64,000 nucleotides of DNA from Psammoneis japonica (taxonomy: Eukaryota). The stretch spans positions 573,848 to 637,847 of the forward strand of contig QPGO01000024.1 of the NCBI GenBank assembly GCA_008632985.1. Direction: 5' to 3'. The notes beneath the pieces were generated by a model, which did not search any database, had not been told where the DNA came from, and worked only from the letters and a program-made list of their open reading frames with translations. Positions 17,279-49,543 of the stretch are shown here, one piece after another. Both the position numbers and the translations under genes were made by a program. Position 1 is the stretch's first letter. The number at the start of each line of letters is the position of its first letter.

Positions 17279-17991
17279 ATGCAACGAACTCGCATTCACC
17301 AGCGCGTTCGACTGTGGCTGGCTTCGTTTACTGATTCTTCCTCCGAGAACAACGGATCTTTGTCTGACTTGGCCAAAAGAGCCCTTTATATTTCAGAGCT
17401 ACCGGTTTTATCAATGGGAGAGGAGGACGACTCGTCAAAGCTTTGTACGATCGTTTCGCCCAAGTCTTCTCTTTCGTCCAGCTTGCATGTTTCTGTGTTA
17501 ACTCTCAAGCCTGGCATTCAAATGGTGCACCGGAAAGCAGAAGGAGAAGAGCTTTACTACGTAATATCAGGAGCAGGCACATTATGTTTAGTCGATAAAG
17601 ATGTCCAAGAGGGCGAAAAAGCTGTCGCCATATCCAAAGGACAGGTCATGGTGGTCATGCCGTCACGGTATGTGTCTGTGTTGGTAGTGACCTGGACCCC
17701 TGGTTCTTTCTTGCTTATTCAGTTTCTCACTCCTATCTCCATTGATTCTTTTTCGTGTATCTTAAATGGATCAGTATAAGACGGATGGCTAACCGAGGGC
17801 TACAAGAGTTGGTGTTTATGAGAATCACAGACGGAGGTTGGAGGTACCTGAGAAATGATTATGACCTCGTTGGCGTGGATGACGAGTTATCAAGTGCAAC
17901 GCTTAGACTATTTCAAGCTGGCGCGCACTATCTTAGTCATACAATTCGGGGCAGTTTCGCGGCAGAGTCTCCTTCTGGTGGCGTCCCTTGA
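17279..17991 (+). CDS. Cupin-domain protein; intron 17668-17774
   Basis: HRKAEGEELYYVISGAG ... GQVMVVMPSR|IRRMANRGLQELVF is restored in frame by a GT-AG intron. Confidence 0.7.
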
Positions 17992-22100: not shown

Positions 22101-25100
22101 GCTGTCTCTCCTTTGCTGGCTTTGTGCCACAAAGGAGTTGGAAAAAGCACCTGCAGATGCTTGCACAAGCAGCGCCGGCACTTTTCTTCCACTCTTTTTG
22201 TTGTCAAGGGGGGGAGGGGGAAGCTGGTGGGATGCACACTGCACAACTGGTCAAACCTTGCTTGCGTCCAAGCTGCTGGGCAGTGCAATCATGAGCAGTT
22301 GCTGGCCATTCAGAGCTTGTTTGACAAGCACAAAGTGGCATCAGCAGCATTGGCAAACTTGTTTCTGCAGCATTGTCAACAGAGATTTGTTGGATGAGCA
22401 AGCTTCCATGAAACTGGAAATCTTGTGTGACAAGCCTTTTTGACAGAAGCTTTTGCTGCTGGGGCCCATCGTTTTCAACACACTGCTGGGAGACAAAGTC
22501 TGGACAGCTGTCTTGTGTGCATGCCAGCTCATTTGCAGGTGCTGGCTCAAAGCCCTGACACCCAGCTTGGATGTGGGAAACACAGGTGGCACATCTGCCA
22601 CAGTTCTGGCTGAGCCATCTCTGCTCTGGTGCTGACATTTGGGCAGCTCCCAATGACCAAGTGTGTGCAACAGTCTCCTCATGCCCTGGAAGCACACTCA
22701 ACTGTGCTCAGCAGCATGAAACATGAAAAGAGCATCAAAACACCAACAAATGCTGTCTTTTTTGAAAAGTCAGAGTGTTGCAGGAACAGATGGGTGCTGC
22801 CTGTTGATCCATGTGTGCTGGCTGAGCACACTGTTGGTTGTCAAAGGAACTGCTTGCCTTCTGTTTTTCCTTTGGCTGTTCTTCCAGAAAATGCAGCAAA
22901 AAGAAGAGATGGCATCAGTCTGTGGCTTTGGAGTTGCAGGTTGGATTTCAAGAGAAGGCATCTGCTGCACCAGCAGAGCCACCTCCACTCTGCAGCTCAT
23001 GCTCAGATTGTCCCCAACAACAAGCAATGGAGCACACATGGCAGCCTTGCCCCTTTGGTCCTTGCAGTGCTCTCAACTGCAGCCTGCATTTTGTTGTGTG
23101 TGCCCAAACAACTGCACACCCAAAAATGACAAACAAACTGGCAGGCTGGTGGCACACAAACTGTTGATCTTTGGCAGATGGACAGATCAACCTCTAGAGG
23201 TCCCCCCACATGGCCACACATTTGCAAGGGTCCAAAAGCCCAAGTTGAAGTGTGCACCAAAAGTGCCAGGCCCCTGCAGTGCACAGGCAGTTGCTTTGTT
23301 TTCAAGCTGCCACAAAGTGCCACAAAAACATTTTTCTCAGCTTTTGAAGCACCTCATCAGATGCCATTCACAGGGTCATGTGCAGCCCCTGCACAGCACA
23401 ATCTTTGGATGGAATGAAAGGGGAAAAAGCATGGCCAGCTCTGAAACAAAACACAAAGATTGTGGCCAGCCATGGCAACAAAGCAGGGCAGGGGAGATGG
23501 CTGCACCAGCTCCGAACATCAAGCACTGCTGCTGCAGGTTTTGCAGCCCATGCTGATGGCATCACATTTGCCAATGCCATTGAGCAACTCCCTGGAGAGG
23601 TCAAAGGCCAGCTTGTTTGGAAAGGAGTTTGCAAGCTGCAGCTTGTTATGGTCATTCTGGCTGACATGCAAAAAGTGGTGGCAGGACATCTCAGCTTCAC
23701 CGTTGTCAAAATTTAAAAAAAAAACCTTGAGTGCCAAGAACAAGCAAGGTGGTGTGCTGTTTGTTCAATCCATTGTTGCCAACATGATGCCATCTCAACA
23801 AAGATGGCAAGAGGTGGCTGGGATTTCCTTCAAGAATTCTTTCAGCTGTCCTGCTCTGGTCTGCCATGCTGTTAACTTGGGAGGGGGAGAAACTCAAAGA
23901 AATGCAAAACATGTTGGGAGCAAATTGAATTTGATGAAGCAAAAGGGGGTGGCAAGAGAGGCAGTGCTCACACTTTGCACCAAGCAAAAGTGTTTGGCTT
24001 GCAACTCACAGGAGCTCTAAAAACATTCACTGCTGGAGCAGCCACCTCTTTGAATGATTTTATCACACCCAGCTAAATGTTTTTGCTTGGTTGAGCACAA
24101 GAGCATGGCTCTCCCAGCAAATTACAATCAAAATGAATGAGGTGCCTTCCCTTTCATCAAATTTAATTTGCTGCTGACACACCTTGTGTTTCTCCAAGTT
24201 TCTGTCCAGAAGCCAACCACAGTGTTTGGACAGAAGCCAATGCATGAAATCCACAAAAAGCCCATGCCTTGAGACATTGTTTGTGTTGTTGGTGTGTGTT
24301 GGTGTGACCTTTTTGGTGGTGACAGTCAAATGAAACCTTGCTTGTTGGCAGAGAAGGCACATTTCATCTGAAATTTGACAATGCAAATTGAGGCCTCCTG
24401 CTGCCTGTTTTTCAAGCCATTTGTCAGGGCCACAATGAGCCTCATCTTGCTGAATTGCAGAATCCAAAAATGCCAAATGAGTTGGCCCTTGGCCTTTGAT
24501 TTGACCCATGTGTCAGTGTGACAAGGATTGAATGTGATGCCATCACTTCAGAATGTGAAATCCACAGTTGTGTTTGTTGTTTGGAGCTGGTGTTGCTGTT
24601 GTCTCCCATGTTTCATGGTGGTGATTCATTTGAAAACAAGTGCTGCACAGGTTGCCTTCATGTGGCAGAAGAAAAGGGGCTGTCAAAGCTTTGTGTGTGC
24701 ACTTGGCTCTTGCCCCAGAATTCTCCTTCTTCTGCTGTGCAATGATGTTTTTTGTTGAGGTTCTCAAATAAATTGGTGCAATGAAATGCTGAGAGAGGCA
24801 GTGGCACTCAACCACGTGACATCGGGGTGGGCACAGCATGCCGAGTCGACAGTGAGGCCAAAGATGGCAGAAATGCATTCTGTCCGTACATCCAAAATTA
24901 AGATTTTGTTGACTACTTCACTTTGATTGTGTTGCATGCCTTGGGTTAGAAAAGTTGCTGTGCATGAGAACGTGTCGGTCGTCAGTGCGCAGATTCGACT
25001 GCAAACGTTGGAGTGACAATGTGCTGCAACTCCACCGCGTCGTGTGGTGGACAACCAAGCACTGTTGGTGCGACTTGAGAGAATGCGAACGATTGACGAG

Positions 25101-25140
25101 GCATGCACCTGTGTCTACCATGCATGTTGATGTTGCAAAA
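19120..25140. mobile_element. TpA/CpG-depleted block; decayed repeat or transposon-derived DNA of unidentified family
   Basis: Same dinucleotide signature as the recognisable retroelement remnants; no intact ORF; family not recognised. Confidence 0.5.
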
Positions 25141-25258
25141 AAATAGTTTGTTTTACACATCATGCTGTTTGTGAGTGGGTAGTAGGTACAGTATTTATAT
25201 ATGATATGGAATAGTTGTTCTTTTGATAAAAAAAATAATGCCATCAGCCATCACCCCA

Positions 25259-27117
25259 TTAGCTGAAGCCTGTTTCGCTTCGCGGCGGATCTTCCTCAAA
25301 TACTGCTTCGAAAGATTTCAGCAATGACCTTCGAGACGTGTCCTTCTGCGAGTCTTCTTCGTCCTGTCGTGCGGCGGAACTCGAGGAGCTAGTGCCCGCG
25401 TCCCTCGGAACGGAGAAGCTATCCTCTTGGCGAGAAAAGTCATCATCATGCTCAGAAAGGAACACCCGATTAGGCACCACTGTGCGGTATTTGCGCCGGT
25501 CCTCGTGATTGTCACTAGTCTTGGTCGTGTTCTGGGAGCTGTCATTCGTTGTATCCGGAGGACGACTGCAACTGCTGCTGAAGTCCACAGTAACGTAATG
25601 CTCACTTATCGCGGATGGCGCTCTGGAGATAGGACTCGCATGCAGACTGTTGCTGGATTCTGTACTAGGGAACTGACTCACCGGGGTGCAGCTTCTCTTG
25701 ATTGGACTGGCATTGTGATGAAGACTGTTGTTGGAATCGGTGCGCGAAGATCGACTGAAGGGTGTTCCGAAGCGACACTCGTATTATGAAGACTATTGCT
25801 TGACCCTGTCCTGGGAAATCGATTATGAGGAGTACCGCACCGCTTGACGGGCGATGCTGACTCGAGAAAGGGTGTACCATCGTTCTGCTTGAGTATGCGT
25901 CCCGCCTCGCTTCCTGCTCTGGCTGCAATAGGAGAGAGCGCAAGCGAAGCGAGGTTTGGGAGATTGTTCTCCTTATCGGTCGACTTAGGAGGCTTAACGT
26001 GCCTTCCTGCATATGTCGGACTGCTTCCTTTAGGAGAGAAGAAGGGTCTACGCCCTGGAGTACTGCGTCGCGGTGTAGCTGAGGCATCGCGAAATCTCCG
26101 AGAAGGCGTTCGCACAATGGGCGGAATGAGGTCACGTATATCTGCGTTGCTGTCAACAGTTTCAGCCTCGCCTGATTCTTGTGAATTACGTTGAAAGGAG
26201 CTGTCGGGTGACGCAGATGGAGTGAAGTCGTCTTGGTCGAAAGAAGCAATCTGAGAGATGTCGCCAACAAAGGAAACAAAACTGGAGTCCTGTATTTGTG
26301 ATGTTTGTGCCGAGACGAACCCCATCGCGGCTCTGTATATATGCATCATTCCAGATTGTAGAGACGACTGCTCAGATACACCGGTATTACAGTCTGAGGA
26401 GTGTGAAACTTCTTCCAAATTGCAGGGAAACAACGGATGTCGTTCAGTGGTTCGTAGAGTGACGCCCGGCTTGCGTTGCCTGTTCTGCTCGGGAGTCGCA
26501 AGGTGTTGTACCCGACTTGAGTTGAAGTAATCGCTGGCGTTTAAGTCCGTCACAATTTCGATCGACTCGTTTCCATCAGCTTGAACTGTAAAGACTGGTG
26601 CCGCGTATGATATGCCCACACCGACGGAAGAAGCATCGTTGGACTGAGCTGTCGACCATGACGCCACAGACACATTCCCATCCATGAGACAATCCCATTC
26701 ATCATCCACTTCATGTCGAGATGACGGCGGCTTGGATTCGTTGTTTTCCCTTGTCCCGTCGATACCGTGACGTGCAATGTGCCTGAGGTGATCCGTAAGG
26801 GCAGCACGTGCTCCGATTGACATGTCGAGCGACGAACTGGGAAGAGACGACGACTGCGAGCAGACGGACCGATCGAGCATAATCTCAGAGACATCGCGTT
26901 CAGATGACGAAGACGATTTGTCGTGCCCGTTCTGCTGCGGTCGCGGCGGATACTTCTGGGAAGAGCAGCTTCCTATTCTCGGTGTTGCTTCGGAGTCACT
27001 GAAGAACGCTTCCAAACCAGGAAAGTTATCGTGGGCTCCGTCTGAGAACGGATCCGTTGCTCTTCGACGCAACGTGGGACGAGGCAGCCGCCTTGGTGTT
27101 TCCGGTGCCATTGTCAT
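25259..27117 (-). CDS. Ser/Pro-rich low-complexity protein, frameshifted near 25775
   Basis: The 479-aa ORF and a downstream frame share a repeated peptide SPxKR..TP...FP.T.S.NSLH; normal dinucleotide composition. Confidence 0.65.
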
Positions 27118-27609
27118 TACTGCTGTGTTTCATAAGCTGACAACAACATGCCAATCCTCTTACGAGCACTCCATACCACACGCAGATGATGATTCTTACA
27201 TCATGCTGTCGCAACACAACGCGCAACGCCCGCTTGGTGGTATGGTTTGGTCTCGATTTTCGCGGCGCGCCCTCGGATTTTTGAAATTGTATGCAATATA
27301 TAGTGTTTAAAATACTTTCAATACTATATATATCTTGAACATTATTCACCGATTGAATGTCACAAGAGTATGCAATATTCTTCATTTTTGAATAAATAAT
27401 ATAAGAAAAATGGAACTGCCATCCTCGTGGCATGGCCCCATCATTCATTCTTTGCCTCGCTTTACAGTACAGTACCGCCGCATTCCTACAGTACAGCACT
27501 GGCGCGCCCTTACATTTTGAATTTAAAAATAATGTTATTTAGACCGGAATATTTGGAATAAAGTATGCACCTGAACATCTCGTAACCTTACGATTATTAT
27601 ATTTTTAAG

Positions 27610-29090
27610 AACATGTGCGAAAAGTGCACTGCTTTTGTCCTCGCACACACGCGGCGCCTCCACCGGCACCTGCGCTGGAGACATCACCTTTTCTCGCTGC
27701 TGCGCCGAACATCCTGCTGTGCCTTTTTTTGTGTTTGCAATGGAGGGTCAAAACATCACAGAGATCAAATGGAAGTGAGGCTCTGGTTTGGTTGGTGAGA
27801 GCCAAGCCAAACAGCCAACTCTCCAAATCCAAGGACAAGCGATCACGCACCAGCAGCAGCGGCATTGAGCAGACACTCCTCAAATCACCCCCAGAGGCAG
27901 GGTGATCTCATGAGAGCATGCTGGGTCCACACTCAAACCCCCATTCTTGCACTGCAGCTTTTTCCAGGTGCATTGCCCTCATCAATTCAGGTGTTTTTCG
28001 TGCGTCAGACGTGATCTCTTCAAAGAACCTGTGAGAAACTCAGCTCCATGCCTGCTTGCACTAAAGATTTTGTCATCAGTGCTGCAGCTGCCAAGAGAAA
28101 GTCTTGTCATGTGACACTCATTGATCAGTTGCATGGAGTGTTTTGATTTTCTCTCTCATGCAGTCAGAGAGCACACTCCAGCATTCTGCGTGTTTCCACA
28201 CAACTTGTTGGGCTCACCTGCCAAAGCATTCTGCATTCCATCATTCTCCTGAGTCCATGGTTTGCTGACTTGCTGCACCCCCTTGGAAATTTGTCTGCAA
28301 GATGCACCACAAATGAGTCTAATTTCTTGCTTTTGCAGGTTTGGCACCTTTGCATCATTCAGGTGCTGGCCTTGATGATGGGCTCTCAGTCATCCTCTCT
28401 TTTGTTGTGCACCACCAGTGCACGACTTGTCACAGTCAAAACACTTGGCTTGTTGCAAAACACCACACATCTTTCTGCACTCACTGCCACAGACATGTCT
28501 CCCACTGACCCTCTGGAGGAGGCTGCACTGCAGTTGCATGGCAGATCCGTGCAATCTCTTGAGACCAAATGGTCCTCAAGTTTCTGACTCAAAAGTCACT
28601 TTGAAAGATCTCCAGCAGGTTTGAGAATTTGTTGCAGCACATTGAAAACTGAAGCCAAGACAGTCCATGTTTAATGCACAGCTGTTTCAGATGAACAGGG
28701 ATTGGTGTTTCCCAAAAATTGGTCATCCCCAAAAATGCACAGGATTTGCCTTTTGTTTTGGCCCTCATCGTCAGGTTTCCCAGTTTCCAAGTCCTTCATG
28801 GCCTCTGCAGCACCATCCAGAACCTCTCCAAGCATTGAAAATTCATCTGGTGTGATTTTAGCCTTGCACAGGGCTTTCACATGCTCTGGATGTGAATCGT
28901 CAATTGGCGTCTCCTCCGCTTCTGATGTCCTCATTGTCAACAGCCAGTCATTTCATCGCCCCAGACGCAATCGCTTTGAAACATGCCTCAGCACTCACGC
29001 TCCCTTTGTTGAGACATTTCAGTTGTTGACCCGCTTTCAAATGCACGCGAAAGAACAGATCGTCATCATCTGACCAATGCAACTCCACAT
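27610..29090. mobile_element. TpA/CpG-depleted block; decayed coding-like sequence on the minus strand, family unknown
   Basis: Dinucleotide signature; broken protein-like frames on the minus strand (e.g. 28671-28940). Confidence 0.45.
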
Positions 29091-29464
29091 CCAGGTAGGG
29101 GTGACTTAACTGTTATCGGTGCAGCACTCTACACACGCTTTAGGACCTCCCACGGCACTTCCTAACTTCAGTGAACAGAGATTCTTTGTTTTGCATCCAG
29201 GTTTTGCATCCAGCTAAAGGGATATCTAATTTTATACTGCAAAGGGACTAGAATATCCTTTGTGTGTTGTATTCTTGTGCACGAGGAGAGTGCGCTAGTG
29301 CTGCTCTTCCATTTTCTGTTCGTCCTTCCCTAGAAAGACCTTCTCGTTACTTTATGGACACTTCATTCTTTGCCAACGGACTCAATGAAGTCTCCGCTAG
29401 CGAATATGACGTAGGTACGCAGACGGAGAAAAGCTTCGAAAATTCCAAAACCGCTTGCTATAAT

Positions 29465-30715
29465 CTAGTAGCTCGAGGAGTCGAGCGAGCGAAACTCCCA
29501 CGCTTGCCGATTGAAGACTAGCTTCCACCTTAGGTCCGTTGTGCCATCAGGATTTCCGTTTAGCCAACCCTCAAATACTCCCACCCACACATTTGGTCTC
29601 GTGACGGTGGTTTCGCTAATGCTCTCTGTGTCACCGAGGTTTTTCTCTCGTTCTTCTTCGCTAGCACTTTCATCCACCTTATCCATTAGCGTGAAGGTCT
29701 GTTTGATATCGTACAGTACTTCAACTTGAGCAGCAACCTGCGGACCGTTCTCATCCTCTTTGTTCACCTTCGGGTTCTTCGCGTCTTCACCTGAATTCTC
29801 CTCAGTATCATCTACTACGTGAGCCCTGGCGCTCAGTAGCGCCACCTGTTGGAATCATTTTGTTGCAGGCCGTTCCAATAATCAATAAACAAATCTCTGA
29901 AATGCGAAAATGAACAAGAGAAAACAAAGACTGTCCTCAGTAATTCGCCAAGTCACACTTACATGTTCGATCTCGCTGCTCTCGTCTTGATAGATCCACT
30001 TGTCGCCTATTAACCACTTTGTTCTTGCAAAGTCTTGGATCATTTTGAAGTACTGAGGCGTCACCATTCTCAGTAACTGACCGGCGAGGGATTCAGGTTC
30101 TGTTTCTGCAAGCTTGTTCCAGTCCTTTTTTATAAGTTGTTTCATCTCCTTGGTCTTGTCTGTGACTTTGAGGATCGCAGCCAATTCGGCTTTGTTTGTG
30201 TGAGTTCCGAATGCTTCCAGTATCTGCATGATTTCACCGTCCCGAGTGGACGAGGGTGCTCCGTCGTTCTCTTTTTCCGCATCTACTTCCAGCTCCTTTT
30301 TATCATTGCCAGTTGTTGTGTGTTCTTCTAATGCTTCCTTCCTGACGCTGTAAACGTCTTCGTAAATCGTGTTTTCAAGTTTGCCTTGCACGTCGTGGAA
30401 CTGAATCAATGCGTCCTTCACACCCTCGCAAAATTCCCCGGGGTTGAATTTATTGTACCGCTTGAATACGGGAGAGTCCAAATCATGAAAAAGGGCTAAA
30501 GCCATGGCACTACCATGATCGGCTCGCGACAAAGTCTCCAGGCGAATGATTCCCTTGTTCAGTGTTTCGACAAACTCATCACGCTTCTCTTGAGACCAGA
30601 GAAGCTTCCAGGACGCATTGGCAGCCGACTTGAATATATCCCACGAAGTTCTGGGAGGGACCAAGAAACCCTTAGAAACAAACGGAGACGACAAGCGAAC
30701 CGTCGATGCCTGCAT
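29465..30715 (-). CDS. Hypothetical protein, possibly Tim44/Mba1-like at the C-terminus; intron 29846-29962; 5' end uncertain
   Basis: Two ORFs joined in frame by a GT-AG intron; C-terminal AQVEVLY...VWVGVFEGWL...RWKL. The domain call is weak. Confidence 0.6.
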
Positions 30716-33599
30716 GTCTTCAAACAACAAAGGGCTGCCGTAACAGAGTGAAGATGCGGTCGATGATCGATGCAGAATTCACAATGCCGATGCCTCATGC
30801 TGAATGCTCGCTCGCATCCGCCGATGCTCCAGCCAGATTAGACCGCGCGCTCCCTGCGCCAAAAAATGACTCCACTTCTGCGCCTACGTCATCAGCTGAC
30901 GTCAAGCTCTTTTGCGTGTGCGGGCGGCGGGCGTGCGTGCGTGTACACCACCATCGTTTCTACGTACAGCATTCTCTTCTTTTCTGACCCCAGGAAACAA
31001 AAAGTGCTCTCAAGAGAGTTGTTTGTCTTCTTGGTGGTCCACTGTTCAGTGCTTTGGCCAGGTCACAAAGGCAGATGTGCACTGCAACTGCAGGCACTGT
31101 GATGAGGCAGAAGCTGGCAGTCGGGTGCTGTGCCAAGCCACCAAGCACCAGCCCACGAGTGGCTCGGTTTGCGCTGCTCAGCCCAGGGCTGCAGCACCAT
31201 TCTTCATGTGGCTGGTGCACCCCTCGCAATGAGCAGCACTTGGTGTGTTCTCACTGCCATCAAAATCCACTCTGCTGTGTGGGTTTTCCAGAACAAGGAA
31301 CCCAAGTCCTTTTGCCTGGAGAGGCCTTCTTTTTGAGAATGTGCTCACCCAGCTTTGCTGCTGCATGGCACACAACAGGGTGCACTGTCCCCTCTGTGCA
31401 GCTTGTTCCATCAACTGGCTTGTGCACAGTGCTTCCTCCAAGTCCATGCCAAGTGCTGCAAATGGCGCCATGCCTTTTGCAGGTCAGCAGCTGGAGTGCA
31501 TGATGCCAGTGGAGCCTTGGCAAGCAGGCATTGCACACATCAGCTGCAAAGTCATTGTTGCCACACCATCCATGCACCCTTTCTGCATTGTTGTCCATGT
31601 CAGCCTCAGCTTTGACAATGCTGACAGTTGCACCACCATGTTTGCCCTGCTTTGCTTGTTGCAATCTGCTTTGCTTGGTGCCATGTCTGCGCTTTTGGCG
31701 ATGCATGCAGTGCAGTGCATTTTGAGGTGCCAGCACTCTCACTCTGCACTTGGCTTTAAAGGCTCTTTGTTCTCCATGGCACTTTTGCTGCAACCACCTC
31801 CCTGAGTCAAGATGGAGCAACTTTTGCCAAGGGATTGCTCTTCAGAGCATGTGTCACTCAGGAGGTGGAGCAGCATTTGTGCCATGCCGCAATTTTGTGA
31901 GCACAATGCAGCACCTCAACTGGCCTGCACAGAGCTTCACACATGCTCACAAAGGCAATTGGCAACAGCGCCAGTTCTCAATTGTTGCTTTTTCAGCAAT
32001 GGCCAATGACTCCTGGGGAGGGGGGGGGGGCAGGATGTCACCTCTGTTCTTGTTCAGCTTTGTTCTGCATCTTTGAGCCTCAGGAGAGTGTGGTTTGCTC
32101 ATGATTTAGCAATGATGCCCAGCTTGTGGGCAGAGTGCATTTTTCTGGTGCTCTGGCACTCTCTGTGAGCCACTCCAGCTTGTTTCTGGCTGAGTCCAGG
32201 CCTGTGGCATTGCTCTTGTTGCACAAGTCATCTCCAAACAGATTGGCAGAGCCCTTGCTGGAGCCATCTGCACTGACTCTGTGGGCACACTTGTGAGGTC
32301 TGCAGCATGTCTTCCAGAGCCGCACCTGGAGCAGCGCAGCTCACTGTTGTGTCATTTGCCTTGGTGCAGTGCTCCTTCCCAAGAGGTGTGCTAAAAAGAA
32401 AAAGCTTGTCAGCTCCTCAACTGCACTTGCTTCAGACCTTTTGACTTGGACAAGCTCTTGAGAAAGAATGAAAGGCATGAGGTGCTGCTGTCCTTCTTGT
32501 CTTTTTGGGGTCGTGCACTTTGTGCACTCTTGATGGCTCTCATGGGGCTGTGCTTCTCTCTCCTTTTTGAGTGTCTGCACAATGGCAAGTGGCCTTTTCT
32601 TTTCCATGTTGGTGCAAGGCTTGCCCACCCTTGTGTGCTCAACAGTGCACACAGCTCAGCCCACAGGGCACAGCTAGATCCAAAACAATTGCAGTGATTG
32701 TCTTTTCCCGAGGTGATCATCAGAGTCATTGATTTTTGTTTCTGATGTTCCTTTTTCAAGAAGAGCATTGAGAGGAAGCAAGAACACCAATTTTTTAAGA
32801 GGAGTCAACAACACTGGCTGATCTTTCTCTCTTGCTCTTTTTTGTTTGCCCATCATGACAACATCTTCTTTGTGGCCCACAGAGCTGACAGACATCCGAG
32901 ATGGGGAGTGCACTCCCTTGTGTCGGACAGACTGGCATAGACAGCATGAGAGATCGATGATCTCTCCTTTGCTCACTTTCTTTCTCATTGGCACACGATT
33001 GTCATCTGTCCAGACATCGTTAGATGTCCGATGCCTAGTCTGTAGAGCATCACATGGCAGGTGTCAAAAGCTGCAAGTGTGTTCAGTTGCAAGTGCAGCA
33101 TCCTGGGGAACCAGTGCATGAAGGGTGCAGAATCAAAAAAGAATTCCTTCTTGCACGCTCACATTGTGCTTGGTGCTGCTCTAAACAAGAAGGGAGAGAG
33201 AGAGAGAGCACAGCAAAAAAGTGTGAAACAAAAAGAGAGACAGAAAGTGGGCAGTGGGTGATGAGTGCCAACCTCTTTTTTTGTGCAAGAGAACACCACC
33301 AATGTGGCTGTTGCAAAAAGCCTGTTGGCACCATGCAGCTCCAGCTCCTCCACAAAAAAAGAAAGATGGGGCCAAATTTTCTCAGCAGAGGGCAGAGGCA
33401 GCAATGCCAAAGCCAGAACAAGTGCAAAAGCAAGAACTTTTCATCAGACAGGAGGGAAATCAAAGCAATTGGGTGTTGCATCACCAAGTTGCTCAGTTCA
33501 AAAGACTGCCACTGGCAGATGATTGTCTTTGACTGTTGCCATCACTGTGGATCCTTTTCAATGACATGAGTTGTCATCTCTCCAACGTGGGGTCATTGG

Positions 33600-36200: not shown

Positions 36201-39200
36201 AGTGCTGCTGGCTGCACACTGCCCTTTGTTGTTTGTCATTTGTGCTGGGCCTGTTGTCATTGGAATTTTCACCCAGTCTGACTTTGTCATCACACTGTCT
36301 TTGGATGATCTGCATCATTCATGGTTGGGCATTCTTGCAGATCATGGTCAGATTAACCAGAAGCAATGGACAGACCACACCTTGGACAGAGATGAGTGCA
36401 GATTTCTTTTGAGCTGCTTCCTCTTCTCACTCTTTCTTGCTGTCACTCTTGATGCCACAGCCACCAGTTTGCAGAGAGCTTGCACACTTGTTGATCTTGC
36501 TGTCACTGCCATGTTGCTTGAGTTGCCAGCAGAGCTCCAGGAGAACACTTCCTGGGTGTGGGGGTTGTCTGAAAACTTGCTCTAATCACAACATGAGCAG
36601 CTCATGTCAGGGTCAAAGTGAGTGTGTGAGGCATCAACTGTGGCAACCACTTTTGTTTGATGTGCTTCAAGTGATCTGAGTCTTTCAGCTCATCATCTGC
36701 CAAGACAATGAAGTGAGCCATTGGCGCTGTTGTTGGAGCATGCACCCTGAAAAAAGCTTTCTGCACAATTGTTGCAATGCTTGCAACATGATCAATGGGG
36801 TCATGTGTCAATGGCAAGATGTGTTCCTTGATGAGGCACTTCCAAAGAAGGTGCACAACATTGTCCTTGCTTTGGGTGTGGCCAGTGTCATGAAAAAGTT
36901 GCAAGTTGAGAGTCTTGCCACTGCCATCAACTTGCAAGATGATGTGTCCATGGACTTGTGGGCCTCTGGATGACTGTTGTGCACATGAAACTTGATGTTG
37001 AGAGTGCAACAAGGGCATCAACAGCATCCTTTCCTCTGACAATTGGTGCCATGGTTGAGGTGTTCAAAAAAGTTTGATGTGCACACACAGAACAGCGTGC
37101 ACAATTCAACAACTTTTGCTTGCCCTGGCTCTGAGACTTTGGATTTTGATGGTCAGGCCTGGTGTCATCCTGGCTGCTTCTGGTTCTTTGCAACCACCCA
37201 GGAGCATGTGCTTGTTGGTGCTTGTGCAAGATGCCAACCAGAGATTGCAGGCCAATCTCAACAAATTTGAGCAACTGATTTCTCAAATGATGACAAGGCA
37301 AGTGTTTGGGAGAATCTCAGCAACACACACCACTGTTCTGTTTTCAAACCAATCATTTTGTTTCACCTGCATGTCAGCTTCAGTTGGGCAAAAATGGAAG
37401 CAAGTTCTGCAAGGCAAGAAAATGAGCAAGAGCCATCATGAAAGCTGCCAACCAAGACAAAGAAAGGGCACGCTGATTGTCTGTTCCATCTCTCATGGCA
37501 TCACTGCACATCTCCAGCAACAGAGCATTGTCCCCACTGCTCACATCAAACAGAATTAGCATGTCAAGCATGGGCAGGAAGCAATGAGTGATGAACCAAA
37601 ATCTGGATTGAGTGTCCACAAAACACCTCTAACTTGCAGGGGACCAATTGAAAGTTGTTGATCACAGAACATGCCAAGGATCAGTCTCCCAATTTGATGA
37701 CTTTGGAGCAGGTTGCAAACAAGGTGTGCTGGTCAGTGGAGCATGAGTTTTTGTGTGTCTTGACATCTTCTTTTTGTTCATGTCATCTCCAGCAGGTGGA
37801 AAGTCAGGAAGCAGATCCAAAATTTGTTGCACCAACTTCTTGCCTTGAGTCTTGTCTTCTGTTTGCTGCAAAATCTTTTCTGCACTGGCATCCCTCCCTT
37901 TGTTGTTTGACCATCCATGTTTTGTTTGCTGGAGCAGCAATCTTGTTGAGCATGTCATCCTTTGGAGTGTTTGGCTCTTGAGAACAGGGTGGACTTCTCA
38001 AAGGGATTTTTTGGACTGCTTCTTTTTTGCCATTGATTCTTCCTTTTGTGCCAAATGCACTTTCTCTTGACCTTCCCTCTTGGTCAAGTCACCATGACAC
38101 TGTGGCACAAGCCATGCAAAAATTCCTGCATCTGTTCCTTTTGCACCTTCTTCCCATTAAGAATTTTTCAATCCTTGTTCACTCCAATGTGCACAAAAGG
38201 AACAATTGAGTTGCATGCAGTGCGCACCTCCTGCTTGTTGTGACTGACAAAAAGGGACACAACATCTCTTGACTTTGTCGTGGAATGGTGCATCGGGAGT
38301 GACTTGTTTCAATGGGTGGCTGACACACTGAATCCAGTGATGTGATCATTTGACTGCAAGTTGTGTGCCCTAAATTGGCTCACAAGATGGCAAAGCAGTT
38401 GAATGCCACCATGAAAGCACAAAAATTTGCAAGCATGTCAACTCCATTGTTGTTGCAATTGATGAATTTAGATCATTTTTTGTTGCTTGCAGCACAAAAA
38501 GTTTCTTTGTCACTTGGTTTGGACAAGATGGACCGTGCACTGCTGCGTCACTTCAACACTGTTTTTGCATGTTGCATTTTGCTTGTTCAACAAACAGATG
38601 TGTGAGGAATTCTGTTAGACACCACTTTTCAGCATTGTTTCATTGGGTTGTTGGTGTGACATGAATCTTGTTGTGCATCATTGTGCCCCTGTTTTTCTTC
38701 ACAATGTTGCAATTTCATGAAAACAACAGGTGTGTTGATGGACGCAGCTGACCCAAGCACACAACAGCATGCAAAGCATTTGGTGCATTGTTTTTGTCCT
38801 CATCAATTTCACACAATGCACTGCATCATTGACCCTTTGCTTCTGTCACTTGGAACAAACAACCAAAAAACCAACAACACAAGGTGCACTGTCGTCAACA
38901 GCAAAAAAATCTACATTGACATGCTGCCACCATGTTGAATGCAGAGCATTGTGTTGCCACCCCACCATCACCCAGCAGGTGGTCCTCCACATTGTCATCC
39001 CATGCATGTTCTCTTTTTTGGGTTCTTTCCACAGCGATTCTGTCATTTGTTCATTTTGTTGCTTCTTTCCTTTGCCGTCAGCTGATTTTTTGTTTTGCTG
39101 TCAAACAACGGATCACACCTTTTCTCAAGCAGTTTTCTGCCAGTCAGGGCATCTTCAACAATGGCCATTGCAAGCAGCTTGCTCATCTTTTCATCACAAG

Positions 39201-41299
39201 TGAGTTGGCTTGGGGTGGAAAAACCTGTGCTCACTCTCAATCAGGGACAGTCATGCCATTGACCCGGACAACATCAATCAGCACAAAAGAATTTTTGGGC
39301 AATTCGGCCCAGCTCCTCTTCTTGTTTTTCAGGCATTTCACCAACTGTCACCATCATTTGCAGGACAAAGTGTGCTTCTGTCATGTGCATGATGTTTGAA
39401 ACCATCATGCCAAATGCACCACAAGGTGACCACCCAGCATGTCAACTGCAAAATGTGCATTGTCAAAAACACACTGACCAAATGCTTGCACCTCTGAGCA
39501 TTTTGGCATGTGTTTTCATTTGTCATGTGAGAGCAGAAGAAAGATTGGTTTCTGCCTTTTTTTGCTGTCACTGTCTGGTGTTTTCCATTGCTTTGCACAT
39601 TGACACCAGCGGCTGTTGTCTTCATCAGGGTCTAGACCCACAATGCAGAGAGAGAGAGCAACTTGATGAAAGCATGATTGACAAACTCACAAGCACAAAG
39701 AGGATCATCCAGCAGGCATGAAAGGACTGGGCAGTTTTGCAAAATGGCATTTCCATCTTGCTTTGGCTCACAACTCACAACTCTGCCACAAATCCTTTCT
39801 TGATGAAGAATGTCACCCAAAAGGAAACTGCAATGTGTTGTGGCTCTCACAAACCCATGATCATTTCCAATTGTTGCACAAGCAATGGGTGGATTGGATT
39901 GGCAGTGAAGCAGTCTGCAAAGTGCAGTCTTTACAATGCAGCAATGATTGGCAATGACAATGCAGCCAGTCTTGTTTGTCTGCATTTGGAATGAAACCAA
40001 ATGGGTGCCAATGACAACAACAGCAGCAGCAAGCACCTTCTCAAATTCTGGCAAGTGAGTGCATGAGTGGCTGCTCCATCTCAAGCAGATTGACAGCATT
40101 GACACTGGTCTTGTCAGAATGATCAACAAGGAGGGCATGAAAATTGGGTGCCATTGCCTGAGCATTGGAGCCACTCTCTCCATCCCCCATGTTTTGACTT
40201 TGAGGCAAGAATTGCCAGCCACCTTGCATTCTTGCTTGGAAGCGAATGTCACACCACTGCCAATGGGAGCATCAGAATGTCCCTGGGAGGAGGCACATGT
40301 GGAAACCACATGTCATCTGGATTTGCCAGCTGCTTTGAAAGATCACAAAAGACTGGCTCTGTGAAAAGATCCCACAGAGTTTCAGCAAAGCCACAGACTG
40401 GGAATGGTGTGGGAAACAACAGTGTTTGGGTCCATTCTTCTGTTGGTTGATGGAGTTGCTGTGCTCCATCACAGCAGTCACAGTGCAGGGAAGAGGGACA
40501 TTGCAAAAAGCTCAAGAAGCTGCTTTGTGGCCATGGCAGCAGCAGCGGAATGCTTTGTCAAATCCAATTGCTTCTTGGCATGCTTTTGGCAAACTGTTCT
40601 TGCTGCTTTGTCTGTGAAGTTGTTGTCACAACAGGCCAATGACAAAGATGCAAAAGGCAAGCCACAGACATGATGCTGGGTGAACACACAGGGGGGACAT
40701 CAAAGTGCTCATTAGAGGCAAGATTGCGTGCCAGCCCCAGTGGGTTCTTGGGATCAAAGGAGGTGTTGGCAACCAAGTCATTGTTGGGAGAAGGAGGAGA
40801 TGTTGCAGCTGCCCAACAAGAAATTGCAGCAGGGCCCCAGGCACTGTCAAGAGAGGCAGCAGCACTGAGCTCAGGAACACCAAGAACAGCACTTTTGTTG
40901 CCAAGGGCAGAAATGCCATTGTCCACAAACAACACAAATTGACAAGCATTCACAGTGGCTGCCTTGGCAGTGGCAGAAAAATGTCCAGAGCATCAGACAG
41001 ATGAAGGGCATGCACTGTTTGCAACTGCAGTGTTGCTGTCAGCAGTGTCATTGTCCAAATGTGGTGGAAGGAGGTGGAGATCTGGATTTGAGATTTGAGT
41101 GGACCTTGGGAGGGAAGGTTTGGGTGCGTTGTTGCCAAAACCAAGCACAGATGGCTCAGCATCAAATTTGCAAATGGCAACATCTTCAGAAGAGGAAAAG
41201 AAACAGCAGCTGGTGTTGTAAAGAAGCACCCTCCTTCTCACTGCAGGGTGCACACTTCCAGAGATGCTGGGCAATGTTGGAAAGGAAGTCAACTCACCG

Positions 41300-44200
41300 C
41301 CAGTGGGGACATCAGGGTCAATCAGAAAAAGACCCAACAGATGAGACAGAGACAGCATGATGGGGAAGAAAAAAAGCAACCAAAATCCAACCAGACAAAG
41401 ATGCTGCATCTGTTCTTGAAGATGTCTGTGTTCCAAGAGAAGGCAGGGAAGCAGAAGTGGTGCAGCAACACAAAAGGTGGTGCTCCATGTGATTTTCCAA
41501 GTCAAAACCAAGTTGTCCAACTGGTCAGACCAAGTCCAACATCACAGTTGGTGGCAAGATGACAAGGACAAAGACCATGTTTGGAACCAAACCCAGAACA
41601 TTTGTGCTGGGAACACACAAGACCTTCCAACTGCACAATTGCCTGTGTGGCCTGACAGAGAAAGTTGCACACACTGATCAGGTGACAAAACAGCACAATG
41701 CAAATGTGAATCACACCACAGGGCACAAAATGGATGGTGCAGGGCCAGAGCTGGAGAATGCCGGCCAACTGTCAAACACGTTGGAAGAAACTTGTGACTT
41801 GAGCAGGCACCTGACCTTTGCAGAAAAGGCATTTTCTGACAGAGAACAAGCTGCCTGGGAGGGCATGGACACTTGGAACTCTTGCAGATCCAAATGCATG
41901 TGAGCCAGAGGGCTTGGATCTAAGAATGAGTCCATGGTTGCAGGGTGTCCACTGAAGCTGGCAACAGCTGAAAGGCACGCACAATTGCAGTTGGAAGGAT
42001 CACCACCACATGATGTTCCATTGTGATGGTTCCACCAAGGGCCGTGTTCGCTGTTGTTGCTGATTGCCATGACCAATCTGACAAGTGCTTGACCAATTGA
42101 GATGTGTGTGCTCAAAAGGATTGAACAAAGAAGACAAGACAAAGAAAGCAGCTGCCAAGAGATGGGCAAAGAGGAGAGGATCTTGATGAAAGATGACATT
42201 TTCTTGCACCATGCCCACGCATCAGCATCTGCCATCTGCAATGTTGGTGCTTCGTGCTTGCTGGGAAGACTGCAACAAACAATCTGTGGCTTGTGCAGAT
42301 GAGGCTGAGTGCAAGATGCTGTCAAAGAGCTGGTCCTGATCAGTCAGTCTCAATTCAGGCAAGCTTTCAATGACACTTCTGGGTCAATCATGATTGGATT
42401 GGCTGCATCCAAGAATGCGCTGAAAAAGCTTCAGGAGCCGGGGCAGTGCAGGGATCAACATGCACAACAGAACAGGATCCACATGCTGCTTGGGTTGTGA
42501 GGGAAGCAAGTGCAGAGCAAGTGGGACCCACCCTTGCAATTGGAGGCAAACAAGGGAAGGTGTGGGACTTTGCTGCAAAGTGCACAGCTGTTGACCTTGA
42601 GAGTGCTGACCAGACTGTTGGTTGGAACTGATTTTGCCCCATTGAGGTGGCAGTGCTGTGACAAGACAACAAGCCACATTCCATCATCATTTTGTCTGGG
42701 CAATGTTCCACTGCAAACACAAACAGCAGCAGCTCCATCCACCAATGCTGAAGAAAATGAGATGGGACATCGTCAAAATCAAACAATTCATGAATGCCAT
42801 TGCAGTCAGCAAGCCAAGTGAACTCTCAACCAAACAATGACTTCTTCTGCTTGGGGAACACCCAGCGGCCAACTGATGTCTTGCCTGCACAAGAGTGGCA
42901 TGATTTTTCTGATGCAGTGGTGGCACGCACAACAAGAAGACTGTTGGTCTCAGAGGAATGCCCCCGGCCATTGCAGATCAAAAAAACATGGACCACCTTG
43001 AATTTCAGCAAGCTCAGCTGCTTCAGCCAAGCAAACATTGGGATTGGCCTGGAGCAGGGGGCTGCTCCCACTGCATCTTTGCTCCAATTGGTCTTGACAT
43101 GGAATTGCCAGCTGCAATCTGGTCAAGCTAAAACCAGACCCAACAAAACATCCTGCCAGAATCCAGCAAAGAATGCTCATTTGACATCTGGTTCCATGGC
43201 ACCAGGTCCTGGTTGTTTTGCTTGAAGCTGTCTAAAAGGAGTCAATCTCACTTCAAATCATTCTTTCCAGTTTTGGCAAAAACTGAATGCAGCAATCAAC
43301 ATGCAAAGGCTGCCCCTTGTTTTGGGCAGAGGCAAGGATTGGAGTGCATCAAGCTTGGTGTGAGCTGGAGAGCTCCCATCCTCACAGATGTCAAGCCCTG
43401 CAAATTCCACTGTTGGAGACAACCACTTGCATTTCTTGAGCTTGGTGGTGATGAAGTGGTGCTGGAGCACCTTGAGAACAACCTCAAAGTGTGGGAATGG
43501 CCATTTTGTCAAGGGCACAAAATGTGTGCAGTCATCATGATGACTTTGGAGCTGCAAGGTTGAATGACAAAGCAGACACCAATGCCATCACAATCAAGAT
43601 CTGGGTGCTTGTCAAAGAATTGAGCTTCTTGTTCTTTTTGCAATGCGGCCATCATGGCAACAAAAATTGCACGTGCATTGACAAAGCCCATTGGCATCAC
43701 ATTCCAGCAGCTTTTGCCTTTGGGAGCAAAAAACGCCATCTTTGCTCTTGGTGCCTTCTCAAGCAACACTTGCCAATGACCACAGTCAAGATCAAAACTG
43801 AGAAAAACTTGGCTTGTGGCAGGATGTCTTGCACCACATTGTCAAACCAAGGTGTGTGGAAGTTGAAAGGATGAGTGACCTGATTCAACCTGTGGCAAGA
43901 GACACAAAGGCACCAAATGCATTGGTGCCATGGCATGTTTTCTTGATGTGGTTTTGCAGCCAGAATGACAAGGGCTCCCCAAGGGCTCTCGGCATCACAA
44001 AAAATCAAATCATTGTTTTCAAGATGATCCAAGAGCTTTGCCATGGTGCAAGACTTGTGGGGGGCACATTGAGGCAGCTTGCAACACACTGGAACTACAT
44101 CCCTGGTGTCAATCTGACACAAGAAACCTGGATGTGTTTTCTCAGCCCTTCTTCATGAAATGCAGCCACAATCTTTGAACATGACTTCCATGCCAACTGG

Positions 44201-47200
44201 CAGGTCCAGGCAATCACCCAGCTCCATGTGATGTGATGGCAACTTTGGGCACCAGATCTTCTCAGTGGTGCGATCAGCACCTTGTAAATTTGGTGATGGC
44301 TTGGATGGAAACAAAGGTTTGAGCACATCAGTTGCTGGACTGGTTTGATCAGCAACAAGGACAGATGAAGATGCAGATGTGACAAACTTGCAATGTGATC
44401 TTGTGGAATCAATGAGAAATGCAGACGGCATGGCCCACTGCCACAGCAGGCCTTGGAATGTCAGCATTGCACTTGCACATGGATTTGACAAGCAAAACAA
44501 AGATTCCAAGGTCAGACCAGAGAACAACTCTCATTCATGCAGCTCAATCCCAGGGACAAAGTTGTGCTCTGGATTTGGTGCAAGCAGGTCCTCACGTTGA
44601 GCCAGCATGAAGAACTCCAACAAATTGTCAAAGACAGCACATGCTTGGTTGACCAAAAGTTGCCATTCAGCTGCCAGTGCCACAGAGACCTTGACTTCAA
44701 CCTGAGCTTGTTCAATGGCTTCAGATGCAGGTTTCTACCATGTCAAGTCAAGCAGGCAGGGAAGAAGCATGAGCACCTTGTGAGCCTGCACCTCCCATCA
44801 AAGGCACTTGGTCTGCTTGATGCAGGATTTGACAACAAACAGGGAATGCATGACCAAGGCATTGGCACAACAGCATGTCTTCTGACTCACTGTGCATGAA
44901 GAGAATGCTGTTGGTGGCTTGCACGAGTGGCAAACTTAAAATTGTGTTGGCAGATGCTGATTTAACTGACAAACCAAATGAAGCCATCACATTCTGGGCA
45001 CTCACCTTGAAAGGGGTTTTGTGGGCAATGACTGTGACAACTCAGGTCACATCACCATTTTCATTGACACCTCCAACAGAAAACTCAAGGTTGTCCATGT
45101 CCTTGATGTGCTTGAAGGTTTCTACAATGTCAGGATTTGCCTTGCAAATGCTCTTGTGGTGCACTGGACATCCCAGGCTGAGTCCAGTGCAAGTGTCAAC
45201 CATGGCGGTGTTCAGGGTGGCTTGGTGCTTGGTGCCAACTGGGAAACAAATGTGAGCACAACTCAGCTTGCTCTCCTGATCAAATCCTGGGCACTTTTGC
45301 TGATGCTTCCACAACTTGAAAATCAATCAGCAATGGGAAACAAATGAAATCAGCGCTGCCTGCACCTTGTCACAACGTGTCACCTGGTGGTTGTGGGGGA
45401 CAAACCAGAGCAGTGTGACCCCATTTGTCATGCAACAGCAACAAGCAGCACACCGTTTGAGTTGCATTTGAAGTTGATGGGTTGGCAATGGACACAACAA
45501 GATCTGCCATCTGTTTGGAGGGGTGTCCATCTTTCTCCCATGAGGAATGAAAAAACATGCAGTGCTGCTGGAAGCTTGTGCAGCATTGTCTAAAGATCCA
45601 TCTTGTGACAGAGCGCTGAGAGGAGGAATGCCCCACGGATGTTTGGCTGGAGTCAGAGAGGAAGCATTTGCTTGTGCTGCCAAATTGCCATGATGAGGAC
45701 AACTGTGCCAACAATGAAAACACTCCTTGTGGAATGACTTGTGACCTGTGCATCCCCAGCACTCAACAAGAGGAAATGATGTGATGGGGCAGCTCATTGC
45801 ATGGCATCCTCTGCTGCACTGAGGAGCACAGACGTGAGCATGGAAATTTGACACAGATCATCTGCATTGTCAATGTTGTCCATGCCCTTGCTTTGAACTT
45901 GTGTTTGGCCACTCTGCACTTGACATGTGACAGGGTCCTTGGGATGACAATCATGTTCTGAGTTTGGGACAGTGGCAAAGGCTTGGGCACCTGCATCAAT
46001 CAGATGGGAGCAAGAGCCTTGTGCACTGGAACGCAATGCAATGCCCCAAGCTCTGTTCACCTCTCAGCGCACTTGCAAAATCTGGCACTCTTGAGTGTTG
46101 GTCTTGTTGGGTGGTCTTGCAGGATCACTGAACAGAGGATCAGCCACTTCTCCTTGATCCATTGAGTTCTGATCCAAAGCAGAGTGGAAAACTTGTGGCA
46201 GGTCAAGAGTGAGCTGGCAATCTGGCACAACATGCTGACCCGCTTTCAGAAAACAAGGCAGAAATCTTCTGTGTTGCAGTGGTGTGGCTGTCCATCCACC
46301 ATTGCAGTTTGTTCTAAGTGCAAAACAGTGTCCACAATCTGAGCATCCATGACAGTGGCTCCACTGAGGAACTCCACTTTAGTGCGCTCTCACAAGAGAC
46401 GCAGTTTGCAGTCAAAGAATTGCTCACTTGAAACAAAGCTTGGCCAGCAGGATGGTTCAGAATGCCCAGTGTCGGAAAGATGCTGCCAAGATGGGCCACA
46501 CAAGCATTCAATGTGGCTTGAGGATCACACAAAACTGCTGCTGTCAATGCTGGAAGCAGCAGCTCTGATCCATCATCTAGATGAGTGGGGTCGTTTATGA
46601 CAGGCCAGGTGTTGGGAGCTGAGCGGCCACTGGGAATGTTTTGGCACTCAAGCAAGCAGTGCTGAGGACATCAGGGGCCCAATTGAAAGCCAGAGCGGCA
46701 TCAATTGTGAGGTCAAAAGTGCAGAACTTTGCATTGTGGCAAACATTCTGGACAAATGGGGGAGGAGGTCCCTGCCGGATTGGGGGTTGCTGGGAAGTTG
46801 AGTGCGCCACCCCTTTCTGTGCAGATCATTGGGCTGCTGAACAGAAGCATCCCAGCTGGGGCTCCTGGCACAGTGACAGGAACATCCAGCCCAGCTGCAT
46901 TGTCACAAAGGCATCATCTGAGTGCGCTGTTGCCTCACCAGACAAGTGATTGATGGAAAGCATGAACTCAGAACATTGTGTTTGGTGGTGAGTGCAGGTG
47001 TGCATGGAGTTGCATTGATGCTGCTGACCATCAAACAACAGGAGTGCTATCTCCACAGAGTTCTCTGGCACTGCAGTGCAAAGATTCGCAAGTTTCTGTG
47101 GCAGGTTGAAGGTGCACAAGCCCCGCTGCACCTGTTCTTGGGTGATGACGGCGAGGGGGTCATTGCGACAACGGCCACCTCCCCTCCCTGCACAAAGTTG

Positions 47201-49497: not shown

Positions 49498-49543
49498 NNN
49501 NNNNNNNNNNNNNNNNNNNNNNNNNNNNNNNNNNNNNNNNNNN
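49498..49543. other. Assembly gap (46 N)
   Basis: Run of N. Confidence 1.

Follow-up and report, generated by a model that had tools for sequence, protein, structure and literature searches.

What has stripped TpA from large parts of a stretch of diatom DNA, and why were a few copies of it spared? The question is raised by 64,000 nucleotides of the Psammoneis japonica genome (contig QPGO01000024.1, positions 573,848 to 637,847; hereafter the window, meaning the whole stretch that was analysed), in which TA and CG fall jointly in discrete blocks with G+C steady at about 48% in 1-kb bins. An original prediction, made from the letters alone, had proposed that the surviving TA sit in TCTA/TAGA or TTA/TAA contexts, that TCTAGA is conspicuously spared, and that this selectivity points to an enzyme with a sequence preference or to protection by a bound protein. 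Beyond that prediction, CG is lost from the same blocks and the mutation occurred in place. We consider targeted editing in silenced DNA, of the kind described for Bigelowiella natans and with a preference for T-A-Y, to be the probable cause.

Blocks were delimited by segmentation from TA/CG density, and six of them occupy about 26.1 of the 64 kb (41%). Quantitative comparisons were made between core blocks, which are trimmed blocks totalling 25,191 bp with 63 TA, and a baseline of 36,196 bp of clearly normal DNA. The window was also compared with contigs of a second read set, run X1. The six blocks, and a short insert within the largest of them, are listed here without strand.

Positions 1 to 450: TA/CG-depleted block, low-complexity, GC 62%, with 1 TA and 5 CG in 450 bp.
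Positions 701 to 1450: TA/CG-depleted block whose right edge lies within a tandem repeat of about 346 bp.
Positions 19151 to 24850: TA/CG-depleted block without a recognisable coding remnant; one 12.9-kb X1 contig spans both edges.
Positions 27701 to 28950: TA/CG-depleted block with a sharp left edge at about 27706.
Positions 31001 to 47150: TA/CG-depleted block, the largest (16 kb), with a sharp left edge at about 30965.
Positions 59401 to 61200: TA/CG-depleted block with a sharp left edge at about 59420, and 1 TA and 18 CG in 1.7 kb.
Positions 32886 to 33086: unmutated short insert in the largest block, with normal TA/CG density, repeated elsewhere in run X1.

The six blocks together hold 72 TA (rho 0.04, against 0.62 in normal DNA) and 159 CG (rho 0.10, against 0.98). 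CA and TG stand at rho 1.91 and 1.82 in the blocks and at 1.13 and 1.16 in normal DNA, and block AA (rho 1.23) and AT are near normal. TA loss in the core blocks is 94%, with a mean TA survival of 0.06 and a CG survival of 0.099. TA loss equals or exceeds CG loss in five of the seven core sub-blocks, the other two (701-1450 and 19201-24500) having slightly lower CG survival. Confinement is discrete: the edges are 10-150 bp wide, sharp (10-40 bp) at about 27706, 30965 and 59420 and spread over about 150 bp elsewhere, and the neighbouring genes are unaffected. In a self-BLAST of the window the blocks were mutually dissimilar and showed no long terminal repeat (LTR) pairs, the sole match being the tandem repeat at 836-1660, the one place where changes could be polarised by setting copy against copy; with no similarity between blocks, duplication is not what sets the process off. 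The first block (1-450) is a repeat with abundant CCACCA and CTGCCAGCAG words, in which several frames are open and TA and CG are scarce.

Such a composition could in principle arise from two unrelated slow decays in old methylated heterochromatin, namely 5-methylcytosine deamination at CpG and a non-enzymatic or polymerase/repair bias at TpA, with no targeted defence. CpG decay in methylated repeats is commonplace, and the absence of repeats shared between blocks also suits this account. It is opposed by the extent of TA loss, which at 94% matches or exceeds CG loss in most core sub-blocks, and by block edges that fall within 10-40 bp; moreover, we know of no general bias that strips 94% of TpA and leaves AA and AT near normal. 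Further evidence on this alternative comes from the pol remnant and from run X1, and it is weighed again below.

The contexts of the survivors bear out most of what had been predicted. Among the 72 block TA there are 7 TCTAGA, 25 other TCTA/TAGA, 36 in TTA/TAA only and 4 in neither, so that survivors outside the TCTA/TAGA class are indeed mostly TTA/TAA with few exceptions. TCTA/TAGA or TTA/TAA contexts account for 68 of the 72, against 761 of 1515 (50%) in normal DNA (p 5e-16). TCTAGA was found at all nine places that had been listed, and the twelve listed TCTA/TAGA half-sites and the exceptional GCTATC at 47046 were found within 1-2 bases of where they had been placed. Seven of the nine TCTAGA are block survivors as claimed, whereas those at 606 and 61291 belong to normal DNA, which holds seven more copies that had not been listed (1631, 9800, 47468, 48718, 58606, 59095 and 61412). 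The spared copies, again without strand, are as follows.

Positions 1305 to 1310: spared TCTAGA, in repeat copy B.
Positions 23193 to 23198: spared TCTAGA, the middle of a perfect 12-bp palindrome (23189-23200).
Positions 34787 to 34792: spared TCTAGA, letters checked.
Positions 35939 to 35944: spared TCTAGA, letters checked.
Positions 39631 to 39636: spared TCTAGA, the middle of a perfect 12-bp palindrome (39627-39638).
Positions 46576 to 46581: spared TCTAGA, the middle of a perfect 12-bp palindrome (46572-46583).
Positions 59418 to 59423: spared TCTAGA, at a block edge.

The selectivity can be reduced to a rule about flanks. In core blocks, TA in YTAR, mixed and RTAY contexts (R, purine; Y, pyrimidine) number 44, 19 and 0, against 262, 811 and 442 in normal DNA (chi2 110.8, p 9e-25); the expectation without loss is 182, 564 and 308, which gives survivals of 0.24, 0.034 and 0. 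Both this comparison and that of the TCTA/TAGA and TTA/TAA contexts, made between blocks and normal DNA of this window, reject a match of the flanks of residual TA to background. By half-site we mean the pair of bases just 5' of TA, taken for either strand in turn. In the 144 half-sites from 72 TA, a pyrimidine stands at -1 in 83% (44% in normal DNA) and T at -2 in 61% (28%). The same preference emerged from a second null without coding DNA, taken from the flanks of block T's outside TA and applied to the 126 half-sites of the core blocks. A pyrimidine was seen at -1 in 107 of 126, against 0.577 expected (p 8e-11), and T at -2 in 33 of 47 after C, against 0.266 (p 6e-10), and in 35 of 60 after T, against 0.344 (p 2e-4).

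Two simple models describe how the strands combine. A two-parameter per-strand model, with a strand survival of 0.50 where a pyrimidine precedes the T and 0.06 where a purine does, predicts 45.1, 16.8 and 1.1 YTAR, mixed and RTAY sites for the 44, 19 and 0 observed. A model of 16 half-site classes, in which survival is multiplicative over both strands, yielded the following half-site survival factors.

TCTA: 1.04
TTTA: 1.03
GTTA: 0.46
ATTA: 0.35
CTTA: 0.30
TGTA: 0.23
GCTA: 0.22
ACTA: 0.15
Every R-TA: at most 0.09
AATA and TATA: 0

The core blocks hold 6 TCTAGA, where 4.2 would be expected without loss and 0.25 at mean survival (P 2.7e-7), and the half-site product model predicts 4.5; counts of individual hexamers are small and come from one 64-kb window. 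TCTAGA is thus spared because both of its strands present an immune flank: it is two back-to-back immune half-sites, and a site-specific protector is unneeded. Stated for the adenine, the rule has TAY as the heavily hit context and TARA as the immune one. Surviving CG have a flank preference of their own, with T at -1 in 12% (against 31%) and G in 36% (against 23%; p 6e-11), T being the most depleted flank; TCGA is absent from the core blocks and occurs three times in the wider blocks, at 0.21 times its baseline share.

The second half of the predicted alternative, a bound protein, fares less well. A dimeric protein, or a local palindromic structure, might protect TCTAGA and related sites, and three of the seven block TCTAGA do centre perfect 12-bp palindromes. 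Palindromic arms of at least 5 are found at 3 of 72 block TA and at 3 of 1579 in normal DNA (p 0.0014), in a test that was made after the pattern had been noticed and that rests on three sites. The three palindromes, however, differ outside TCTAGA and so offer no single binding site, and the non-palindromic TCTAAA/TTTAGA are equally spared (6 seen in core blocks against 6.3 expected without loss). The half-site product model already predicts the TCTAGA count; if extended flanks matter, palindromic survivors would be expected in any case, with both strands in one slow context. A shield of this kind is therefore very unlikely. An agent with a sequence preference is favoured over a bound protein because the spared sites share only two bases per side and because one copy of the tandem repeat (copy A, below) has lost its TCTAGA. 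Of the predicted enzyme or protein, then, the flank preference stands, on each strand separately, and the enzyme is a proposed agent.

Two other candidates bear on the same words and were ruled out. Ultraviolet dipyrimidine damage fails because the dipyrimidine-bearing YTA survives best. In enterobacteria, very-short-patch repair turns TA words into CCAG/CTGG-type words and CTAG is specifically depleted; a process like it is excluded here by the sparing of TCTAGA, which, unlike in enterobacterial CTAG scarcity, is the best-spared word. Polymerase-eta errors at WA were likewise rejected, since AA (rho 1.23) is not depleted.

Four lines of evidence (mass balance, paralogous repeat copies, a pol remnant and the second read set) agree that the lost TA and CG became TG and CA. 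Relative to normal DNA, the blocks have lost 90.5 TA+CG per kb and gained 91.9 TG+CA per kb, and TG is about equal to CA in every 500-bp bin of the blocks. The next two lines come from the following features.

Positions 836 to 1660, plus strand: tandem repeat with copies A, B and C, used for ancestral-versus-derived comparison.
Positions 41717 to 44164, minus strand: decayed Ty3/gypsy-type pol (reverse transcriptase, RNase H) with frameshifts and TGA stops, its extent taken from tblastn.

The repeat, whose unit is about 346 bp and which runs to two and a half units, adjoins the 3' end of a UTP20 homologue. Copies A and B are mutated, and the 3' part of copy B (from about 1383) and copy C have normal TA and CG. 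TA or CG in copy C and the end of B correspond to TG or CA in copies A and B, as in the normal copy CTTACGATAC, which reads CTTGCAATGC in a depleted copy, with many further such pairs; TCTAGA is intact in B (1305) and C (1631), and A has TCTGGA in its place. Because the border falls within a repeat unit, the change was made in place and was bounded by position, not by homology. The unmutated repeat unit also holds a (GCTA)n run at 1557-1577.

The pol remnant was recognised from RVT_1 at 43512-43841 on the minus strand (E 1.7e-7), the only Pfam match among 149 block open reading frames (ORFs; stop-to-stop, at least 90 aa). A read-through piece at 42391-43587 matches Ty3/gypsy pol proteins (E 1e-52) whose domains are RVT_1, RNase H and integrase. 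Columns were taken as conserved where at least 8 of 13 homologues agree. None of the five conserved tyrosines is kept in the block pol, three having become histidine (CAY) and two cysteine (TGY). Conserved arginine is kept at 3 of 16 columns, and 9 of the 13 others are exact CGN products (TGY, TGG, CAA, CAT, TGA). The process is strand-symmetric, since TG is about equal to CA in all bins and tyrosine has given both histidine and cysteine. A tblastn search of the window with seven intact pol homologues found this single remnant, a word-indexed protein search with the mutated pol returned 2592 candidates of which none scored, and six-frame read-through of 19151-24850 and 33090-39002 matched no Pfam families.

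The fourth line is run X1, whose contigs hold the same depleted sequence as the window. Agreement exceeds 99.8% over block and flanks in contigs as long as 12.9 kb, and one 12.9-kb contig runs gene-block-gene with 12 other letters and 10 gaps. Of 51 differences from the window, the 40 that were listed amount to 30 events within blocks; the 30 include 6 TA against TG/CA, 8 CG against TG/CA and 4 adjacent TG-versus-CA doublets. Each such doublet is one ancestral TA or CG that was resolved oppositely in two haplotypes or strains. The differences go both ways, with 4 CG and 4 TA gained and 4 CG and 2 TA lost. Counted by site, 6 of 37 block TA differ, compared with 2 of 286 TA in normal DNA (odds ratio 27, p 3.6e-5); for CG the corresponding figures are 8 of 69 and 1 of 411 (odds ratio 54, p 1e-6). 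Because the differences are bidirectional and polymorphism is in excess in the blocks, they argue for a process that is recent or still running and disfavour a one-way calling artefact. An error of base calling or assembly at modified bases has in its favour that no platform is recorded for the assembly or for X1; given the agreement of X1 contigs at more than 99.8% and the differences in both directions, it is scarcely credible.

Several side observations belong to this comparison. Between 33087 and 34514, X1 and the window are far more divergent, with 17 other letters and 44 gapped letters in 1.4 kb, and all four TG-versus-CA doublets (one at 34313/34314) fall there; haplotypes may be more deeply diverged in this part, or the element may have been mutated more recently. 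At the adjoining insert of about 200 bp (32886-33086), which has an internal palindrome at about 32940-32960, many X1 contigs are found with loose ends on both sides, and one joins 32885 to 33087. The insert is probably a young, not-yet-mutated copy of a mobile element that is both short and abundant and shows polymorphism between the window and X1. In the normal parts of 17001-31000, three of five X1 differences (17056, 27497 and 29747) are of TA or CG against TG/CA, few sites on which to judge any mild genome-wide hypermutability of these dinucleotides.

The same data bear on three alternatives. The first is that most residual TA arose anew, whether from TG/CA or by transversion, with contexts that reflect their origin. 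Some turnover does exist, as at 4 sites TG/CA of the window stands opposite TA in X1, once in a GTAT context. The precursors available in the blocks would nonetheless give another picture: NTGN/NCAN are 24% Y__R and 24% R__Y (hand-summed), and the TA are 44:0. The flanks of block T's offer nothing from which the enrichment of T at -2 could come, and with quick re-conversion in fast contexts the standing set would still report the preference of the mutator. We regard this origin as highly improbable.

The second alternative, that the elements were edited as RNA or cDNA before integration by an ADAR- or APOBEC-type enzyme, would accord with several sharp edges and with a block that holds a retroelement pol. 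Deaminase-type hypermutation of selfish elements is the province of those enzymes, and ADAR favours a 5' U. ADAR also favours UAG, and TAG is among the better survivors here. Theirs, however, is one-strand editing of RNA or cDNA, which would skew TG against CA; here TG is about equal to CA in all bins, and tyrosine has become both histidine and cysteine. The edge at about 1383 falls within a tandem repeat unit, and at one locus the conversions differ between two haplotypes or strains. Editing before integration is thus exceedingly improbable.

The third is the pair of slow decays introduced above. The pol remnant speaks for it, as pol is frameshifted and keeps 85 of 163 conserved columns, so that the blocks may be old. 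Decay of 5-methylcytosine at CpG resembles what is seen here in turning CpG into TpG/CpA, and confinement to methylated repeats is a feature of that system; it would, however, explain the CG half only and is silent on TpA. The remaining TA are 27-fold more polymorphic in the blocks than in normal DNA, and in the available text of the B. natans preprint the same signature appears as a switchable, 1000-fold hypermutation. Slow decay is on balance unlikely.

Repeat-induced point mutation (RIP) of ascomycetes was ruled out because the change runs in the wrong direction. The blocks are like RIP in their in-place transitions on both strands, sharp borders and dinucleotide preference, transposon defence being a feature of RIP. 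They are unlike it in that RIP turns CpA into TpA and so raises TpA, whereas here TpA is at rho 0.04 and CpA at 1.91. RIP also needs duplicates, and here the blocks are dissimilar, a border cuts through a tandem repeat and copy C is unmutated.

The closest parallel is the chlorarachniophyte B. natans (Mettrop et al., bioRxiv 10.64898/2026.01.13.699255), for which the following is taken from the available text of the preprint. In mutation-accumulation lines, two integrated viral regions received 231 of 302 new mutations, a rate of about 6e-7 per site per generation (about 1000-fold hypermutation), and all but one of the viral-region mutations were A>G or T>C, these all on TpA. Windows poor in TpA and rich in CpA+TpG form 124 clusters in that genome, reverse transcriptase (RT) and DDE domains are over-represented among its low-TpA coding sequences, and the authors propose an ADAT2-like DNA adenine deaminase. 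Going by that text, the two cases share the change of TpA to TpG/CpA on either strand, discrete regions and raised polymorphism. They differ in host, here a diatom (stramenopile), and in degree, with near-saturation at rho 0.04 against 0.45 in the B. natans nucleocytoplasmic large DNA virus (NCLDV) region; CpG loss in the same blocks and the flank rule (TAY hit, TYTA/TARA immune) are seen here. A spectrum made up almost entirely of A:T>G:C changes, as in B. natans, is not what the blocks have, and their CpG part may be a second process on top.

We infer a DNA-editing enzyme aimed at silenced DNA. Under targeted editing, silent and at least partly transposon-derived DNA would be hypermutated in place and on both strands alike, through transitions of TpA to TpG/CpA and of CpG to TpG/CpA. 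Each strand of a TA would be attacked separately, at a rate set by the two bases 5' of the T (or, equivalently, by the pair of bases on the 3' side of the A in the opposite strand). With a purine at -1 (RTA, i.e. TAY) a hit would be almost certain; a pyrimidine at -1 would slow it, and T-Y at -2,-1 (TYTA, i.e. TARA) would render it negligible, leaving TCTAGA, with its two immune half-sites, at neutral frequency. The surviving TpA would be the slow tail of the process and not protected landmarks. The likeliest candidate would be a TadA/ADAT2-type adenine deaminase with T-A as its target, in line with the proposal for B. natans, and CpG loss could come from 5-methylcytosine deamination in the same domains or from a TCG activity of the same enzyme. 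Five things seen directly in the data are taken in by this reading: which way the changes run, their symmetry between strands, a boundary set in place, the flank rule and the high polymorphism at remaining TA and CG.

The tRNA target of such enzymes, A34, always follows U33, which would fit the T-A requirement. In the available part of the article on amphioxus BjADAT2 (PMC10354150), the enzyme is a deaminase of A as well as of C in DNA, its preferred contexts being 5'TCG3' for C and 5'GAA3' for A; the first agrees with the flank most depleted among block CG, and the second mismatches TA. Trypanosoma ADAT2/3 is listed with the DNA-acting ADAT2/TadA deaminases, as cited in the available text of bioRxiv 10.64898/2026.01.13.699255. 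A tentative extension, conceivable rather than likely, is that diatoms possess one chromatin-guided, TadA/ADAT2-like dual base editor that acts on both strands of silenced foreign DNA, on A in T-A (fast at TAY, blocked at TARA) and on C or 5-methylcytosine in (T)CG. The same system would operate in Rhizaria (Bigelowiella), as an ancient defence across stramenopiles, alveolates and Rhizaria (SAR) that is RIP-like but unrelated to RIP.

The substrate might instead be thymine. The T of TpA would be modified, for example to 5-hydroxymethyl- or 5-formyl-uracil by a JBP/TET-like enzyme, and would mispair with G, giving T>C with an R-T-A preference. The rule can equally be written as R-T-A hit and T-Y-T-A immune, and of 12 informative sites followed by eye for the target strand (tandem repeat, pol), 8 fit control by the 5' flank of the own-strand T and 4 oppose it. 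Gains of RCAR are 16.7/kb against 7.5/kb for RTGR, a comparison confounded by CG conversions. 5-Hydroxymethyluracil (5hmU) is enriched at TpA; its pairs with A are not known to be strongly mutagenic, which counts against this route. According to the available part of a report on dinoflagellates, these silence transposons with 5hmU (PMC11572971). A limited literature search found no evidence of such a base in diatoms, and sequence data do not separate thymine modification from adenine deamination. We consider the thymine route distinctly unlikely.

A number of points weigh against targeted editing by a deaminase of this kind. The enzyme's identity is purely inferential, the natural substrates of ADAT2/3 and the GAA preference of the amphioxus enzyme (in the part of that article available) mismatch the TAY rule, and the B. 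natans preprint, in its available text, reports no CpG effect like that in the present blocks. The 8-to-4 split of sites by target strand leans to the thymine side, and the half-site model over-predicts TTTAAA (6.6 against 2 seen). The baseline for expected contexts is mostly coding DNA from the same window, and it may only approximate the ancestral composition of the blocks. Independence of X1 from the assembly's own reads is not on record. The frameshifts of pol and its 85 of 163 conserved columns mean that the blocks may be old, and a slow long-term bias would then be inseparable from bursts. Finally, a transposon origin is seen for about 2.4 kb, in one block region.

The window is otherwise eukaryotic nuclear DNA with long, intron-poor genes, among which are the following.

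Positions 1743-11097, minus strand: gene for a UTP20 homologue.
Positions 15107-16531, strand not stated: gene for a Na/H exchanger.
Positions 57488-58930, strand not stated: gene for a NUDIX-HAD protein.

The closest relatives of the Na/H exchanger are 60-73% identical, and the named ones in the best 120 all come from diatoms or diatom-bearing protists. Run X2 is filed as 'DNA?' and behaves like RNA, and its contigs were placed on genic DNA only, so that stretches it does not cover say nothing here about expression; an X2 contig skips 107 bases (17667-17773) with GT..AG ends, which resembles a spliced intron, in a gene at about 17240-18665. A run of 46 N at 49498-49543 is an assembly gap or masked stretch, and the DNA around it is normal.

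In the literature searched, no report was found of joint TpA and CpG loss in diatom repeats, and the B. natans preprint was the only report found of TpA hypermutation. The words CpG, flanking, context and diatom are absent from the main text of that preprint (bioRxiv 10.64898/2026.01.13.699255). Hoguin et al. (2023; PMC9998398), in the available part of their article, state that the function of diatom DNMT4 is unknown, and deamination and TpA are not mentioned there. New relative to B. natans are the diatom lineage, the near-saturation, the coupled CpG loss and the quantitative flank rule.

For those who annotate genomes, the blocks mislead gene finders, because every frame is open except at TGA, and they mislead repeat annotators as well. 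The flank rule (R-TA/TAY hit, TYTA/TARA immune) can serve as a fingerprint in assays of candidate deaminases or base-modifying enzymes, and a natural T-A-specific enzyme acting on double-stranded chromatin would interest the base-editing field. If the dual base editor exists, every tyrosine codon, TAA/TAG and CGN arginine codon of an invader would be erased by it. In the window, 41% of 64 kb has been cleared of TA and CG, and with them all tyrosine codons and two of the three stop codons have gone. The signature thus appears in a second, distant lineage and is coupled there with CpG loss; the B. natans case consists of modest depletion and new mutations in culture lines, and the P. japonica window shows the end state of such a process.

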